This document shows positions 21,001 through 36,000 of a stretch of 64,000 nt of DNA, in pieces. A program made the position numbers. Location: contig CBDDTI010000746.1 of NCBI GenBank assembly GCA_965233585.1, positions 64,001 through 128,000 on the forward strand, given 5' to 3'. The DNA is from a bacterium (GTDB lineage Bacteria; SAR324; NAC60-12). The first letter of the stretch is position 1, and each line of letters begins with the position of its first letter.

Positions 21001-24000
21001 GCTGATGAGTCATCATGTGAATGTCTTCATCAGAACAAACAGGGGGAATGGTCATTAAGGGAGTGGTTGGGGGTGTTTTGGCAGAAAAGAGTCCCCAAGA
21101 ATCCGTGCCAACTTGAATGTAGGGGTCGGTAAACACACCATCAGCCCATTCGCCATCTTTTAAATACTTGTCACGTGCTTCGTTTTCTGACATTTGAACA
21201 GGTGATGAAACCAAAGGAGTAGTAATGACGCTGTGTTTGTGAAAAAACTCGTGTTTGATGGAATCAAAGCGATGAGGTTTACCATGGACAGGCTCAAGGC
21301 TGGGTTCTCGTTTTAAAAAACTTCCCCAAGCATAACGTCTGCTGACACATTCCAAAGGCAACATCTCGCAGTCATGGCAAAGCAACTGAACATCGTTGAC
21401 TTGCTCCACGTACGAAGTAGGAATGCCGTGTTTTTCTAAAAGTTGAAAGACATTTGCCGTTTGTGTGGTCTTGTGGACTGCAATGCCTTCAATTTCCGCC
21501 TTCTTTGCCGCATCGCCTCCCGTGAGTTGGTCCATTGTCTCTAAAATAACAAGCCCCTCACGATCTGATTCCATGATTCTTTTGGTTTTTCCGTCTGTAA
21601 TGATTTTCATAATACCCTTCGTCAATATTCAAAAAAGTGAAGCAGGCATTATGACATAACCCCCAGCCAACAGGCAAATGATGAATTTTTTGATTTATAT
21701 GTAGTGACTTCTATTTTTTTTGTACTTGTGTATAATAGGCATCTTGTCGTTTTTTTAAATAAAGAGTTATTGCATGACTCGTTATTTGAACTTAACCTTA
21801 AAACTATGGAGAAAACATGCAAAAAATCAAAAAATGTGTCACAGGGACATTGGTTATTTCAGCAACAGCTTTGTCTGCTTGTTCCACGATGTTTAATTCT
21901 GGCTCACAAACTATCATTGCTCGTTCTACCGGGGGAAAAGAAGGAATCCAAGTAGAAGTGACCACACCATCAGGAGCTTATACAACCAAGCTCCCAGCAA
22001 CGATTGCCGCAGAGTCAAGTTGGGACGGAGTCAAGGTTCGTGTCATTGACAAATGTTATGATTCTACTGCAACAGAAGTCAATAAAGGCATCACCCTATC
22101 ATTCTGGGCTAATATTTTCAACTCGGGAGTTGGATTCTTTGTTGATTTAGCGACTGGTAAGCTTTGGAAATACGACACAAACGTGTCTGTGCCAGTCAAC
22201 GCAAAAACGATGGATAACGTAGAAGGTTGTGAATCTGCGTGAGTCAATTCTGCTTAAAATTTTGAAGATGAAGTCATGCTTTCCTTCTGTGCATGACTTC
22301 ATCATCTCCTTTGTCCTTCCTCACATAAATATAAATTGGTTTTAGAAATCGCTCCTCTCACGTAGGGAATCAACCAAATCCCTGCTTGTGCTTTTTTTTC
22401 AACGGGTTTGCATTCAGTGTCTTGAATCCAAGTCAGCCTGACTTTCATCTCCTTTCCCTCTGGATTTTTCAAAAGTAACGTTTGCCCGACGTGAATGGTC
22501 TCTTTGGTGGAAACAGCAAGGTATTCGTCTCTTGCCATCTCAAGTACAGTTCCCACTAAATGCTTATTTTCAATGGACAGATGTTTGTTTTTCAGCCTCT
22601 TGATGGACATGTCTGTTTTGTTAGCACGATAAAATCCATGTGTCGTTTTGACATGCCACGATTTTTTGACTGTTAAGAGTTGCTGCAAATCAAAGGGGTG
22701 TGTCCATTTGTCCAGAGATTGAATGATTTCAAACTGGTCATGGAAACGTAAATCCAACCTCATCGTATGAACCAACGAGCCTAAACCTGGGATCAAATCC
22801 AGCAGAAATAAATCGTAATAATGGAATAAAAAAGACCCGTGAGTTGTTTCTAATGTTGGAAAAGAATGATGAGGCAGGTCGTCATAGTTGACCCACGCCT
22901 GAATGATGTCTTGTTGAGAGTCTTTGAAAAAGCGATGCAACAGGCGTCTGGGTGTATAAAAAAGACAGATTCTTCCCAACCCTTGAATTTCCAAAGGGGT
23001 TTTCAGTGCCTCTTTGTAATATTTTAACAAGGCTTTTGGGGTTTCGTTAGACAATAAAAATCGTTGAAGTTGACTGCCAAAATACTCTTCCCAGCCAAGC
23101 AGACTTTCTAAGTTACGACTGCCAATTTCCACAATCAAATGAATTGGCACATTGAAATCATATTGCTGAATCACCCTTGCCGCACCAACATCTTGAACAC
23201 GAATGGCAGACAACAGATGCAAAGGCAGTTGCTTTAAAACTTGCTTTGCCCTGTCCATCTCATCATTCAAATTGAGGACGTCCCATTGCAAACAGATTGC
23301 AAAACTTCCGTGATATTTTTCAACCAAAGCACATGCCTCATCAGAAGAAAATCCTCCAAACCTGCTTAAATGCTGGTGTTCAATGATCACTTCTTGCAAA
23401 GACGTGCTTTGCAAGGTCTGGACTTCCTTGACTGACCGAACGAATGTGTTGAACTTCATGCTATTAAATACAATAAAAACATCACAGCATTATGACACAA
23501 TCTTTGGGTCATTGCAGAACTGCCTTTTGTCAACTGATGGCTTGTGTTTAAGTCATTGCTCATCTTGACTCGCTGTCTCTCTTTTTTTCTCACTTGCCTA
23601 ATCAATCAAAAATGACTCTGTTCTTTCAAAATCGTTTCCATTTTGTCTTCAAATTGGTTATGATTCTTGATTTGGCATTCTCACTCATAAGCTGATGGAA
23701 ACCGCTTTACTTTTTGACACACTCAAGACCTCCAAACATTTGCAAGCCGCAGGCTTTGAACAAGAGCAAGCAGAGGCACTGACAGAAGAATTTAAATTTG
23801 TTGTAGAAAGCAACTTTGCGAAACTTTCAACCAAAGAACAAGTTTCTGCTTTAGAGACGAATCTCAATGAGAAACTGGAGCAAAAAGCCACCAAAGAACA
23901 AGTCACTCACTTACAAGAACAACTGGAGCAAAAAGCTACCAAAGAACAAGTCACTCACTTACAAGAACAACTGGAGCAAAAAGCTACCAAAGAACAAGTT

Positions 24001-33000: not shown

Positions 33001-36000
33001 AGTGTTGCCTTTGGTGAGTCCTGTGTTAGTGTAAGTCGTTGTAGCACCATCATTGATTGTGTGAACTTGTGAGTAGCCTGTGCCTGAAGTGGTGCTGCGA
33101 TAGATTTTGTAACTGGTGGCTCCTGTGACGGCATTCCAAGTCAGCTTTGCCTGTGTCTCTGTTCCTTGAACTTGAACCACTGCCAAGCCTGTTGGTGCAG
33201 CAGTCGGTTTGGTTTGCAAGGTCAAAGAGACGCCTGTTAGATAAGTTTCTCCTGTCTCAGAGACAGCAGAGATGCGGTATTGATAAACTCCTGCTTGAGT
33301 CAATCCTGAATCTGTCCAGCTGGTCGTTGAAGCATCAGCAGTGGTGTGAATCAACTCCCAACTTCCATCTGGTTTTTGACGATAGATTTTGTAATGTTTG
33401 ATGACAGACACATCAACAGGCAGAGACCATGACAAGTTAGCAGTATCGCTAGAACTTTGAGTGGCTTTGGGATTCTGGACAAAACGTCTGGCACTGGCAG
33501 TGAGTGAATCAGTTTGAGCAGAACAAGCAGAGCCTTGGCAGAACTCCAGACGGTAATTGTAAGTTTTGTTGGCATCAACAGAAGTGTCTGAATAAGGAGA
33601 GCTGGCATTGGTTGCAAGTGTTGCAAACGAATCACTTGAAGACAATTTGCGATAGATGTTGTAGCTCATGCCTTGCTTATGCTTCCATGAGATTTGCGGA
33701 GGAGAATTGCCAACAAAGGTGATGTCTTCCACCAGTCCGCTCAAAGCCGCAGAAACCTGACACTCATTGCCTGAAGCGACAAAAGACTCATCGTGTTTGT
33801 TCTGATACTTGACAGCACCACACTGGTTGGCAGTGGCTGGGGTGTAAACATATTGCCCTGATGAGTTCAAAGTCAGTTCACTGTCTGCCTTGACTCCTGC
33901 AATAGCAAGTGCAAATCCTTTGGCTGATGAAGGATTGTTTTGAATCCCTGCTTGAAAAGAGAGGGGAGTTTTTTGATCAAGTCCAAAGCTGGTAGGTGTC
34001 TGGTCATCTTTTTCTCTGACGCCTAGCGAGTATTTAACGGGGTTGCTGTTCCATGATTGCTTGGGAATGACAAGGTATTGACCATCTTGGGTTGGCGTCA
34101 AGTCAACAGGTTCACAAGTGCTGAAGTTGTCTTTGGAGACAAGCAACGTTCCTTTTTGGTTGGAACACGCATGGCTTGCATCATAAGGAGTTTGGGAGGC
34201 AACCAGCGGAGTTTGAGTTTTCAAAAGCAGAGGGCTGAGGGCGAAAGTCTTGCTATCGCTGTCTTGAAGTGTTTGGAGTTCTGCAATCAAGAAAGGGTCG
34301 CAGTTGACTTGAAACTCTTGCATCGGGAGTTGTTCGCTTTTCTCTGGGTCTGCAGTTTTGACTTTCAAACTCACTTTGAGCTTTTTGACTTTGTCAGCAT
34401 AGTCCATCAAGTCAAACTGCATGGCAGACTGACTCATTTCCCCAAGTTTCTTGCCTTCTCCATCATAGATTTCAAGGTCTGCGACATAACCCCTGCTGCC
34501 GACGTTTGCAGTCTGTTCGCCAGACATAGACAGCTGAAACGCACAACTTGACCCTGTGCTTCTTTGATGGGCAAGTTGTCCTGTGATAGGAAAATGCTTG
34601 CCTGCTGGTCTGATTTTGACCTTGACTTCTGTCACGCCTGATTCTCTAAACTGAAAACTCCCAGAAATCCCAGTTTGATGCACTCCGTAACGCACGGATT
34701 CTGTGGCAGTGACGTCTTCTTCTTCATAACCTCTGACTTGAACAATCCAGTCTCCGCTAGTGTCTTCAAAGTCTAATTTGGTGTAGTAATTCTCATCAAG
34801 CCTGAGAACGCTTTTTGCTTTTTCAAATTCTTCTTTGAGAGAAAGCCCTGCTTGGTAGTCTTCTGCTCTAAAAATCAAAGCATAGTTTGACCGAATGGTC
34901 GCTTTGTCCCACTTGGAAGAAGACGCACTTGAGTCTGCCCCAATGGACAACTGCACACTTTCTTTGCCCCCTTCTGAATTACAAGAAGACAGCACCATCA
35001 CGCTTAACAACACACCACCAACCAACTGAAAACCACTTTTGCATTTTTTAAAGAAACTCATCAAAACCTCCTGAAACTTAAACACGAAAAAAGACAATTT
35101 ATGACTAAATGAAAACAAAGAAAATGATACATGAAACAAAAAATACATGCAAGGGGATTTTTGAAAAGAAAGCTGAGTGGTGAGAATTTTTTGAGCTTTT
35201 CAAAGACCGCTGACGGCTAATTTTTTGAGCTTAAAAGCGGGGGTACGTATAGAACTTCGGTCGTCCACTTCACAAGCAATCATGGTGATGTTTTTCAGCA
35301 TGTCTTGGAATGTTCCTGCAATGGTGATTTCACAGACTGCCTCTGCTAGTTTGCCATCGCGAATCCATAGACCTTCTGCTCCTTGAGAATAATCGCCTGT
35401 TGTAATGTTGATTCCTTGCCCTTTGAGTGAGGTGATGTAAAGTCCGTCAGAAATAGAGTCAATCAATTCAGATTCTGGGGTATTTCCTGCTTTCAAAATC
35501 AGGTTGGAATGCCCCCCTGCATGCCCTGTTGTTGTCATGCCCAGTTTGTTTGCCGAGTAGGTAGAAAGCATGTAATTTTTCAAGATTCCATTTTCAATAA
35601 GAGTCATCGGCTGTGCTTTGACGCCTTCGCTATCAAAATAACGACTTCCCATTTTTTGTGGCAAAAGAGGGTCATCATACAAACAGATTGATGAGTCTGC
35701 AATCGTTTCATTTAAACAGTCCAGCAAGAAGGATTGTTTTCTGTACAACGCCCCGCCCATCAAAGCACTAGCGATAGACTTCCAGAATGTGCGTGAGGTT
35801 TGTCTGTCAAAAATGACAGGGACTTCGCAAGTTTTAGGCTTGGTGGCATCTAATTTACGCAAAGTACGTTGAATGGCTTCTTGAGCAATGTCGTCATTGT
35901 GTTGGAGTTTGGAATAAAAGCAAGAGGAATCATACCAGCCGTCAGATTGCTTGCGTCCTTGATTTTCTCCGCTTGAATCAGGTGAGTCTATCCATAAAAA

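Follow-up and report, generated by a model that had tools for sequence, protein, structure and literature searches.

Stalked PD-(D/E)xK nuclease genes in tandem behind a giant lipoprotein gene: a 29-copy family in a SAR324 genome

What do five look-alike genes standing in tandem behind one giant gene encode, why does a single genome hold so many of them, and do they serve their giant neighbour? These questions are raised by the window analysed here, a stretch of 64,000 nucleotides from the genome of a SAR324 bacterium (contig positions 64,001 to 128,000), in which the minus strand carries a 1,734-codon fn3/Kelch lipoprotein ORF followed by five nuclease paralogs of 213-251 aa (Table 1, positions counted along the window). 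The giant ORF matches fn3, Kelch and GH85_C in a Pfam scan and, with its start at 35061, presents the lipobox VLSSC that is also found in its paralogs. The coiled-coil gene convergent to the array scores below the Pfam cut-off for CCDC90/DUF1640 (24.6 vs 33.5 bits) and contains a 48-nt repeat (x 2.6) with ATKEQV/ATKEDV motifs. No CRISPR-associated family was found among the nine window neighbours scanned.

Table 1. Genes, intragenic repeats and spacers of the nuclease array in the window.
Feature	Position	Strand	Description
DUF1640/CCDC90-like tail-anchored coiled-coil protein	23695..24216	+	173 aa; convergent to array
Spacer after last copy	24217..24539		packed with REP-like palindromes
Stalked nuclease copy 5	24540..25295	-	251 aa; six WEK hendecads
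Tandem repeat inside copy 5	25001..25202	-	66 nt x 3.0, 91% matches; encodes hendecad stalk
Spacer, copies 4/5	25296..25725		430 nt; REP-like palindromes, inverted pairs; TGCTATACT at 25329..25337
Stalked nuclease copy 4	25726..26421	-	231 aa; three WEK hendecads; catalytic E of EVK replaced by G
Equivalent intragenic stalk repeats	26184..26278, 28163..28255, 29111..29283
Spacer	26422..26740		319 nt; REP-like palindromes; hairpin and T-run 26521..26541; TGCTAGACT at 26464..26472
Stalked nuclease copy 3	26741..27382	-	213 aa; two WEK hendecads; modelled copy
Spacer	27383..27702		320 nt; REP-like palindromes; hairpin and T-run 27483..27503; TGCTAGACT at 27426..27434
Stalked nuclease copy 2	27703..28377	-	224 aa; three WEK hendecads
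Spacer	28378..28649		272 nt; REP-like palindromes; hairpin and T-run 28477..28497; TGCTAGACT at 28421..28429
Stalked nuclease copy 1	28650..29393	-	247 aa; five WEK hendecads
Spacer, giant/copy 1	29394..29943		550 nt; several REP-like palindromes; hairpin and T-run 29684..29705
Giant lipoprotein ORF	29944..35148	-	1,734 codons; probable start 35061, giving 1,705 aa
Parts of the giant ORF			fn3 and GH85_C-like repeats; Kelch propeller 1212-1486; C-terminal module 1493-1734

In each paralog a conserved head of ~15 residues leads into a single long helix, which is followed at the C-terminus by a PD-(D/E)xK domain of restriction-endonuclease fold. This architecture, proposed in the genome-wide survey's note, recurs in an AF2 model of copy 3 (pLDDT 86.8), where a helix spanning residues 2-102 is followed by an a/b domain; Foldseek gave seven matches to this model at E<=1e-3 and, with VIA-align, returned the same nucleases that the note had listed as structural relatives. 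Its view that helix length changes through repeats was likewise borne out, as WEK motifs lie exactly 11 residues apart (2-6 per window copy) and the helix varies among paralogs by whole 11-residue steps, via 33/66-nt DNA repeats. Within the signature, which had been described as an invariant E..D..EVK, residues E15, Y39, D40, V72, K73 and Q83 are present in 29/29 copies; 28 copies retain D58 and 27 retain E71. The full set E..D..D..EVK..Q is complete in 27/29. Window copy 4 departs from it by an E to G change, and C745:164006 by two changes, D to N and E to K. With dN/dS of 0.07-0.24 in all four subfamilies, the nuclease domain is under purifying selection.

An HMM search of the genome's ORF set returned 31 matches, two of 61 aa and 29 of 152-274 aa, in agreement with the earlier count of 29 paralogs; a profile scan of the whole genome gave 35 matches, of which six are remnant pieces. 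All of them are confined to five contigs (C745, C746, C747, C723, and C729), and the arrays of ~0.96-kb units were reproduced at the positions first reported. The five window copies do not form a single clade, copies 1 and 5 grouping instead with a member of the C723 array (99/95 support), and dS within the window array reaches up to 0.47. The family was met in 10/88 genomes of the phylum, the other nine with 1-2 matches each, and the 29-copy expansion is thus peculiar to this genome within its phylum.

The family had been regarded as nearly an orphan, a view that did not hold. No Pfam or NCBIfam model reaches its cut-off in the window nucleases, as first stated, the best being PDDEXK_10 (17.0 vs 21.2 bits); however, 1,158 protein clusters match a nuclease-domain profile at E<=1e-3, and 392 still do so at <=1e-10; most are 170-300 aa long and matched at the C-terminus. 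Another 242 relatives came from scanning GTDB with near cousins. A word-indexed search returned 17 proteins, 12 from this genome and five from metagenomes. When 52 relatives were scanned, Card1_endonuc was found in 12 (one above cut-off), DUF3782 in three, PDDEXK_10 in one at cut-off and NERD in one above cut-off, while in a list of 97 relatives precomputed PF26618 occurred in 13 and PF12644 in two; the closest Atlas clusters carry DUF8196 and DUF3782. Coiled-coil PD-(D/E)xK endonucleases appeared in print in 2007 (Knizewski et al., PMC1913061) and again in 2016 (Hartmann et al., PMC4786415), where they have no assigned function; these papers describe a DUF1626/PDDEXK_10 group (PF07788, COG5493) with N-terminal coiled-coil stalks. 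The stalks of such nucleases are filed as DUF3782 (PF12644) or the newer DUF8196 (PF26618).

That group, linked to the window proteins by profile search and Atlas neighbours, shares with them the succession of head, coiled-coil stalk and C-terminal PD-(D/E)xK domain, and both are encoded by stand-alone, multi-copy genes whose stalk changes by whole repeats. The window proteins differ in that they reach no Pfam cut-off of their own, in stalk units of 11 residues rather than the 7 of the relatives examined here, and in that their genes cluster at REP-like palindromes and downstream of giant lipoprotein genes. Also among the closest systems are the CARF nucleases Can2, Card1, Cdn1 and VC1899 (DUF1887/Card1_endonuc, PF09002); in place of their CARF domain, or any other ligand-sensing domain, the window proteins are predicted to have a single long helix. 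A coiled coil joined to a restriction-fold nuclease is also the plan of RmuC, a coiled coil with PD-(D/E)xK, and of the McrBC-type "coiled-coil nuclease tandem" systems; the RmuC model gave nothing against the family beyond one match in a stalk (E 0.042), and no GTPase partner was found across 79 loci of relatives. At these 79 loci no neighbour cluster recurred in more than four, an antisense ORF artefact aside. Among kept loci, 10/48 genomes hold 2-7 copies of unequal length, and a Sulfurospirillum MAG has seven tandem relatives of 170-202 aa; multi-copy genomes and tandem stalk-length arrays therefore recur in the family beyond this genome.

The surroundings of the copies bear on how they multiplied. 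The 27-nt terminator-like hairpin once taken to close the units of two arrays does occur in the spacers but is not a unit feature, being one of some 400 REP-like palindromes genome-wide (~397 on six core contigs), which cluster at the nuclease copies: one lies within 400 bp of 21/29 copies vs 126/2,032 other genes, and of 14/18 nuclease loci, counts biased because the motifs were derived from the spacers of the window array itself. Mobile genes, whether selfish, homing-type or of another sort, that proliferate in REP- and IS-rich intergenic sites, and not for host use, would explain this clustering as well as the 29 copies with their remnants, the IS1-like elements that adjoin several copies and the sharp homology boundaries around promoter and ORF (among dispersed copies, from ~90-130 nt before the ATG to 0-20 nt past the stop). 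The patchy occurrence in the phylum fits too, DUF1626 itself being patchily distributed, with multiple HGT events suggested, according to PMC3424549. We nevertheless think this unlikely, as the unit boundaries showed neither terminal inverted repeats nor target duplications, the copies are old (dS 0.16-0.47) but strongly conserved, the Sulfurospirillum array, in another phylum, has 54-nt spacers without REP-like palindromes, and in two Sulfuricurvum MAGs one and the same rRNA methyltransferase gene precedes the copy, an arrangement suggestive of stable inheritance. RAYT/REPIN systems resemble the window genes in being flanked by short palindromes that form inverted pairs and are dispersed in hundreds of copies; the flanked gene is there a Y1 transposase and here a PD-(D/E)xK protein. 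No Y1 (RAYT) transposase, tested as PF01797, was found to which the palindromes could be ascribed (0/10 candidates; assembly 92% complete), and this, with their abundance at the copies, would suit housekeeping structure-specific nucleases of Hjc/NucS/RmuC type that process palindrome hairpins or cruciforms and expanded as these spread. We hold that proposal to be improbable: a single role in repair would not call for 29 copies, 78/88 genomes of the phylum do without the family, subfamily D (5 copies) has no such palindrome within 400 bp but different hairpins, and arrays elsewhere lack them.

As to the giants, the earlier finding that they precede 19/29 nuclease genes at nine loci was reproduced (same strand, 630-1,734 codons, skipping one IS1-like ORF and others of only 81-94 codons), but these are not independent cases, the count being inflated because giants and nucleases were co-duplicated: the four giants preceding the window-type subfamily (A) are each other's closest paralogs by mutual best hits, and array members are common to those loci. 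The excess, for which chance adjacency had been a concern, is real. It stands at 9/18 loci vs 15/2,355 background genes with a giant set defined from the nine giants themselves, and survives a size-only test (upstream protein >=1,000 aa; 7/18 loci vs 35/2,355 genes), which at 3/12 still gives p 6.5e-4. The location behind giants is non-random and reflects about 3-5 independent events. Relatives also lie directly behind fn3 and Calx-beta ORFs of at least 1,624 aa at two loci of a gammaproteobacterial MAG, and, in an alphaproteobacterium, behind a TSP3 ORF of at least 1,608 aa; together with the size-only test, these two lineages make a functional link possible. One could thus imagine nucleases, giants and DUF1640-like stalk proteins as a module, either a membrane-tethered nuclease or a driver of recombination among mosaic giants, whose segments are 90-97% identical inside genes otherwise 60-70% identical. 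The Sulfurospirillum array directly behind a DGR agrees with this, as do DUF1640-like genes following family members in the window, at C747:907964 and C723:31803 and, outside this genome, in a second genus of the phylum and a MAG of the Rhodocyclaceae, and their co-occurrence with the nuclease family in the phylum (7/10 vs 15/78, confounded by kin and genome size). However, most relatives have neither partner nearby (DUF1640 within 5 kb at 2/79 loci, a giant upstream at 3/79), the three DUF1640 adjacencies of this genome are one co-duplicated event, and no signal peptide was found in the window nucleases; we regard such a module as distinctly unlikely.

With moderate confidence, we read the family as a gated endonuclease, self-contained and probably oligomeric, that has multiplied in a plastic genome rich in repeats and whose role is most likely conflict-related. 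Each unit would be its own transcription unit, opening with a conserved ~95-nt upstream block that carries a TGnTA(G/T)ACT extended -10-like motif and closing, after the gene, with REP-like palindromes, one of them a hairpin with T-run. Terminator-like sites number 13 vs 6.3 +/- 2.4 in shuffles; a generic sigma-70 scan gave no promoter excess (9 vs 8.8 +/- 2.6), so that the putative promoter is drawn from conservation. The window array may have grown as its 0.96-kb units underwent unequal crossing-over, and loci may have multiplied through segmental duplication that included the upstream giant gene. By analogy with its closest structural relatives, Can2, Card1, VC1899 and NucS, the protein would act as an oligomer, most probably of two subunits, held together by the coiled coil, its nuclease gated by head and stalk where those relatives carry a sensor domain. 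Self-contained, conflict-type DNA cleavage, whether defence-like or addiction-like, is the most likely role, ahead of a service to the giant gene next door. Support for a conflict role is weak: the CARF-nuclease models of PADLOC gave only weak matches (E 1e-5 to 1e-2), and it is countered by the 30 neighbours of relatives scanned in other genomes, which are mostly housekeeping genes, and by the single relative met on 2.9 million viral contigs. The window family is a divergent, lineage-specific branch of the widespread DUF3782/DUF8196/PDDEXK_10 group with a Card1-like nuclease domain; the stalked nuclease group itself is already catalogued and in print, and what this genome adds is an unusually large expansion of it.

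Five paralogous genes of the window encode stalked nucleases, i.e., proteins composed of a head of about 15 residues, a long helix (the stalk) and a C-terminal PD-(D/E)xK domain, and lie in tandem behind a giant lipoprotein gene, facing at their far end a convergent gene for a DUF1640/CCDC90-like protein (Table); the order and copy number of the array are those of the assembly. Four sequencing runs of a single study contain 40-70% of the sampled sequence words as DNA contigs, in short pieces (32 of them at most 501 nt long) with short-sided joints at the repeats, and no RNA run was listed as containing the stretch. 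The observation made in the genome-wide survey's note (the array, a family of 29 copies, their fold and the giants upstream) is confirmed as a whole, and its interpretation is supported in part. The end of the giant gene at 35061 given in that note fits a start at a later Met with the lipobox VLSSC, as in the giant's paralogs. The surroundings of the locus are of a housekeeping nature and include genes for PmbA/TldD, a Dam-like methyltransferase, peptidase U32, SAICAR synthetase and XseA as well as flagellar genes. The Dam-type N6-adenine methyltransferase gene lies two genes upstream of the giant.

Coordinates of the array and of related features; positions preceded by a contig name count along that contig of the assembly, all others along the window
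Feature	Position	Strand	Basis or remark
Giant lipoprotein ORF, 1,734 codons	29944..35148	minus	fn3, GH85_C-like and Kelch domains (Pfam scan)
C-terminal module of the giant, residues 1493-1734	29944..30680		no Pfam match
Stalked nuclease copy 1, 247 aa	28650..29393	minus	ORF call
Stalked nuclease copy 2, 224 aa	27703..28377	minus	ORF call
Stalked nuclease copy 3, 213 aa	26741..27382	minus	ORF call
Stalked nuclease copy 4, 231 aa	25726..26421	minus	ORF call; EVK replaced by GVK
Stalked nuclease copy 5, 251 aa	24540..25295	minus	ORF call
DUF1640/CCDC90-like tail-anchored coiled-coil ORF, 173 aa, convergent	23695..24216	plus	24.6 bits vs 33.5 cut-off
Terminator-like palindromes	29684..29705; 28477..28497; 27483..27503; 26521..26541		type with T-run
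Dam-type N6-adenine methyltransferase, 216 aa	36624..37274	minus	PF05869
Other DUF1640-like genes behind nuclease arrays	C747:907964..908551; C723:31803..32201
DUF1640-like genes alternating with lipoprotein genes	C747:432-442k; C746:322-329k; C747:983-994k
Nuclease pseudogenes	C747:444.6-445.0k; C747:322.3-322.6k		common internal deletion
PDDEXK_2 gene behind a stalked nuclease	C747:16958..17977	minus
PDDEXK_2 gene behind a stalked nuclease	C745:507736..508626	plus
Mosaic giant genes	C745:223705..227493; C295:229597..233649; C745:61774..66834
Lipoprotein gene of ~400 aa with the C-terminal module (example)	C729:78407..79654

The AlphaFold2 model, computed from a 34-row alignment (pLDDT 86.8), places a helix at residues 2-102 ahead of an a/b domain, and a Foldseek search of the PDB gives seven matches at E<=1e-3, namely VC1899, the R2 restriction-like endonuclease (two entries), an XisH-type protein, AF1548, NucS and R.BspD6I. 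Matches found by VIA-align span model residues 79-213, with FokI, McrC, NucC, LmuA and SduA ranking lower. Model and nuclease matches agree on the architecture proposed by the survey, a long helix followed by a PD-(D/E)xK domain, and Foldseek and VIA-align together make the predicted nuclease fold well supported; a sequence search of the PDB returned no match below E 0.95. The C-terminal domain combines a restriction-endonuclease fold with the E, D and (D/E)xK residues, and the N-terminal stalk that precedes it is marked as a long coiled coil by the helix and a regular 11-residue repeat. Within this stalk the motif WEK recurs with a period of exactly 11 residues (5, 3, 2, 3, and 6 times in copies 1-5), and the 11-residue steps correspond to 33/66-nt repeats in the DNA, the 66-nt unit with 91-95% matches, which bears out the proposal that helix length is driven by repeats.

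Searches with tblastn and with an HMM built from the copies arrive at the same family size as the survey, with 29 intact members of 152-274 aa plus remnants, and a whole-genome profile scan of the assembly gives 35 family matches. The copies are confined to contigs C745, C746, C747, C723, and C729, which together with C295 form a core of 2.96 Mb (crude coding density 0.83-0.92), while the remaining 741 small contigs (9.05 Mb, crude ORF coding density 0.40) hold no nuclease copy, giant homolog or REP-like palindrome. The 12-Mb assembly looks composite or uneven in quality, though it is rated 2% contaminated. Genes with a PDDEXK_2 (Rpn/YhgA-like) domain number 12 in the genome, two of which immediately follow a stalked-nuclease gene in the same orientation; one PDDEXK_2 match falls on the non-core contig C109.

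In the alignment of the copies, the head and a domain of ~140 residues are conserved, and the helical part between them varies. Six positions are invariant across all 29 (E15, Y39, D40, V72, K73, and Q83), D58 is present in 28 and E71 in 27, and the motif set is complete in 27 of them, the exceptions being copy 4 of the window and the shortest copy, C745:164006. The domain tree resolves four strongly supported subfamilies (A-D), with median dN/dS values of the nuclease domain of 0.13, 0.07, 0.20, and 0.23, respectively. As dS reaches 0.47 among the window copies, these low ratios indicate that the copies are old and have been retained. The window copies do not form a single clade: the first and the fifth group with one from the C723 array (support 99/95), and the three between them intermix with copies from C747:906k, C747:940k, and C729, in contrast to those of the subfamily-D array, which do form one. 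Two pseudogenes have in common an internal deletion of the catalytic core, which fuses the stalk to the final third of the nuclease domain, and identical in-frame stop codons; dead copies have therefore also been duplicated. Two supposed 5′-truncated remnants are no sign of one-ended copying, as they are full-length pseudogenes with the common internal deletion.

Homology among dispersed copies at the DNA level extends from ~90-130 nt before the ATG to 0-20 nt past the stop codon. The upstream block holds TGCTAGACT or TGCTATACT 34-44 nt before the ATG in four of the five window copies, a motif that may represent an extended -10 element; a generic sigma-70 scan detected no excess of promoters (9 vs. 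8.8 +/- 2.6). The spacers (272-550 nt) are full of REP-like palindromes (GTCATT-stem-loop-stem-AATC), many of them arranged as inverted pairs, and the type with a T-run scores as terminator-like in four spacers; terminator-like sites in the region amount to 13 in total vs. 6.3 +/- 2.4 in shuffles. The 27-nt hairpin described by the survey as terminator-like keeps that score at these four spacers and loses its status as a mark of the unit, since the palindromes occur genome-wide. Their four motif types have 66, 143, 152, and 36 matches (both strands, up to 3 mismatches), which merge into 397 elements across the core, with 24 inside long ORFs.

The survey had counted 19 of the 29 genes behind nine giants. 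The adjacency itself stands, at 9/18 loci and on the same strand, but the independence of the cases is low, as they reduce to only about 3-5 juxtapositions: the four giants that precede subfamily A are mutual best hits with a common C-terminal module, three SBBP giants before subfamily B have their 3′ ends in common, and a nuclease remnant follows a 94%-identical paralog of one SBBP giant. The background of 15/2,355 genes behind giants is circular, the giant set having been defined by homology to the same nine. Judged by size only, an upstream protein of at least 1,000 aa is found at 7/18 loci vs. 35/2,355 genes and one of at least 600 aa at 9/18 loci vs. 180/2,355 genes; should no more than 3 of 12 placements count as independent, the corresponding p values are 6.5e-4 and 0.058. 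With ~3-5 independent juxtapositions, the excess behind giants is real but modest. Elsewhere, fn3 + Calx-beta ORFs of at least 1,624 aa lie directly upstream of relatives at two loci of one MAG, and a TSP3 ORF of at least 1,608 aa lies upstream of a relative in one alphaproteobacterial genome. The giant genes are themselves mosaic: segments of ~390 aa reach 93-97% identity between genes that elsewhere agree at 60-73%, a pattern suggestive of gene conversion or domain shuffling among the giants in recent times. The final ~245 residues of the window giant form a module that ends in YYLC(G/F)V(E/K)IP and is common to the Kelch giants and to many lipoproteins of ~400 aa (~16 genes).

At least 24 DUF1640/CCDC90-like genes are present in the assembly, coding for tail-anchored proteins whose head is conserved and whose stalks (88-242 aa) vary by repeats. 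Three of them stand behind nuclease arrays, including that of the window, and count as one event because the loci were co-duplicated. Independent adjacencies involve one family member each from another genus of the phylum and from a Rhodocyclaceae MAG; in a third genome, 2.8 kb separate a DUF1640-like gene from a member of the family. Within the phylum, DUF1640 occurs in 7/10 nuclease-positive vs. 15/78 nuclease-negative genomes (Fisher p 0.002, or 0.005 without the genome under study), a co-occurrence confounded by kinship and genome size. Several DUF1640-like genes of the assembly alternate with genes for lipoproteins of the Kelch or C-module kind (Table).

At their cut-offs, Pfam and NCBIfam give no match to the window proteins; the best Pfam match among the copies is PF07788 in a subfamily-D copy (17.0 bits vs. 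a 21.2 cut-off), the window copies having none. A word-indexed search yielded only 17 proteins, 12 of them from the genome itself. The rarity that the survey implied does not hold, since a profile of the C-terminal domain, run against 1.84 billion representatives, recovers 1,158 proteins with E<=1e-3, of which 392 reach <=1e-10 and 10 reach <=1e-30. These relatives, mostly 170-300 aa long and matched at the C-terminus, follow one plan, namely a head, a coiled coil built of repeats, a linker rich in G and a ..YD..EYDIVL.N....IIEVK.. domain. Among 52 relatives scanned, Card1_endonuc is listed in 12 (one above cut-off) and DUF3782 in three, and PDDEXK_10 exactly at cut-off and NERD above it in one each, so that the profile reaches Pfam-bearing members. 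A second, broader search with a 61-row alignment reaches 13/97 proteins with precomputed PF26618 (named DUF8196 in the protein Atlas), 2/97 with PF12644 and one with DUF3782 above cut-off; the Atlas clusters nearest to the window protein bear DUF8196 and/or DUF3782. The source names of relatives range from “hypothetical protein” to “Holliday junction resolvase-like predicted endonuclease” and “YraN family protein.”

Earlier work describes such proteins. DUF1626 (PF07788, COG5493) is there placed in the PD-(D/E)xK superfamily, with an N-terminal coiled coil in most members (Knizewski et al., 2007; PMC1913061), and is given as patchily distributed and of unknown function (Steczkiewicz et al., 2012; PMC3424549). 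Prokaryotic PD-(D/E)xK endonucleases with N-terminal coiled-coil stalks are treated as a family filed in Pfam under DUF3782, and a stalk motif of archaeal members is tied to DUF1640 membrane proteins (Hartmann et al., 2016; PMC4786415). Literature searches on DUF3782, on DUF1626/PDDEXK_10/PF07788/PF12644 and on DUF8196/COG5493/PF26618 turned up neither a functional study nor a description of arrays, and those on SAR324 with fn3/Kelch proteins found nothing relevant. Taken together, the copies of this genome are a new, very large and divergent addition to a known, uncharacterised kind and nothing categorically new.

When GTDB species genomes were scanned with an alignment of near cousins, 301 stretches gave a match, 242 of which encode relatives; the 79 loci kept belong, among others, to Methylococcales, Chromatiales, Campylobacterota, Leptospira and sponge symbionts, and 76 family ORFs were called in 67 of them. 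Between two and seven copies of unequal length occur in 10 of the 48 genomes represented. A Sulfurospirillum MAG carries seven tandem copies (170-202 aa, 54-nt spacers) that differ in heptad number, and pairs in tandem occur in two further genomes; the arraying of stalk-length variants in tandem thus belongs to the family and is no peculiarity of the genome under study. Directly upstream of the seven-copy array, at 212-4503 of its locus, lies a DGR composed of a bAvd-like protein, a reverse transcriptase and two Lcl_C targets. In the phylum of the window, the family is matched in 10/88 genomes, the nine others with 1-2 matches each vs. 35 here. Only one relative was found in 2.9 million viral contigs, and PHROGs gave nothing but stalk matches at noise level.

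In the explanation that we favor, each copy would have its own promoter and hairpin terminator, the array would have grown via unequal crossing-over, and the protein would form an oligomer held by its coiled coil, the nuclease being gated by head and stalk in a self-contained, possibly conflict-type role. The closest structures are nuclease domains under the control of an N-terminal sensor and of dimerisation, as in Can2/Card1, whose nuclease activity is governed in this way. These effectors carry a CARF sensor N-terminal to the nuclease, whereas the window proteins have one helix instead in the AlphaFold2 model, and Pfam scans of the window proteins gave no CARF family. The conflict-type role is the weakest point, because PADLOC 2.0 returned only weak matches to Csx1 / CARF-PDDEXK nuclease models (E 1e-5 to 1e-2) and the genomic context elsewhere is mostly housekeeping. 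Joined to what is observed (family identity, architecture, an intact active site under selection, 11-residue stepping, unit boundaries and co-duplication), the statement as a whole has a slightly better than even chance of being right, and its functional part a somewhat less than even one.

That the nuclease genes are selfish units is unlikely: IS1-like elements do adjoin several copies (the assembly has 63 DDE matches of IS1-type transposase), but the copies are old and have been kept under selection. A search of the assembly for Y1/RAYT-type transposases (PF01797) scored 10 candidates and found 0 matches. In RAYT/REPIN systems a Y1 transposase is flanked by its palindromes, whereas the palindrome-flanked genes here encode PD-(D/E)xK proteins. 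A structure-specific housekeeping nuclease acting on the palindromes is hardly probable; a palindrome lies within 400 bp of 21/29 nuclease copies (14/18 loci) vs. 126/2,032 other genes, a count to be read with the caveat that the motifs were taken from the window array itself, and subfamily D has none of these palindromes and other hairpins instead. A module formed with the giants and the DUF1640 proteins has a slim chance, the recurrent adjacencies standing beside the housekeeping genes that make up most of the other neighbors among 30 scanned; no neighbor cluster is found in more than 4/79 loci, an antisense ORF over the family gene (9 loci) aside. Integron cassettes are ORF plus recombination-site units beside an integrase, whereas the window units each have their own conserved upstream block, and a cassette array is rejected, no recombinase being found among nine scanned window neighbors, which likewise lack any CRISPR-associated family. 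An array of inert immunity genes behind a toxin giant is not favored, because the downstream genes keep their full catalytic set under purifying selection.

The weak but repeated ties to DUF1640 stalk proteins and to giants are the only contextual leads to function. The chance that nucleases and DUF1640-like tail-anchored proteins work together at the membrane beside giant loci is faint; if they did, matched stalk lengths could set the distance between nuclease and membrane or the choice of partner, and the pair could serve as an envelope guard against incoming DNA or as a driver of recombination among the mosaic giant genes. The family is large (more than 1,000 clusters at 50% identity) and widespread, has an intact nuclease site, and, strikingly, tends to occur as tandem and dispersed copies distinguished chiefly by the length of the stalk. 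The expansion described here, with 29 copies in four subfamilies, is the largest among the genomes examined, and its clean 11-residue steps and old, selected paralogs make it a good natural source of length variants for a first biochemistry of the family.
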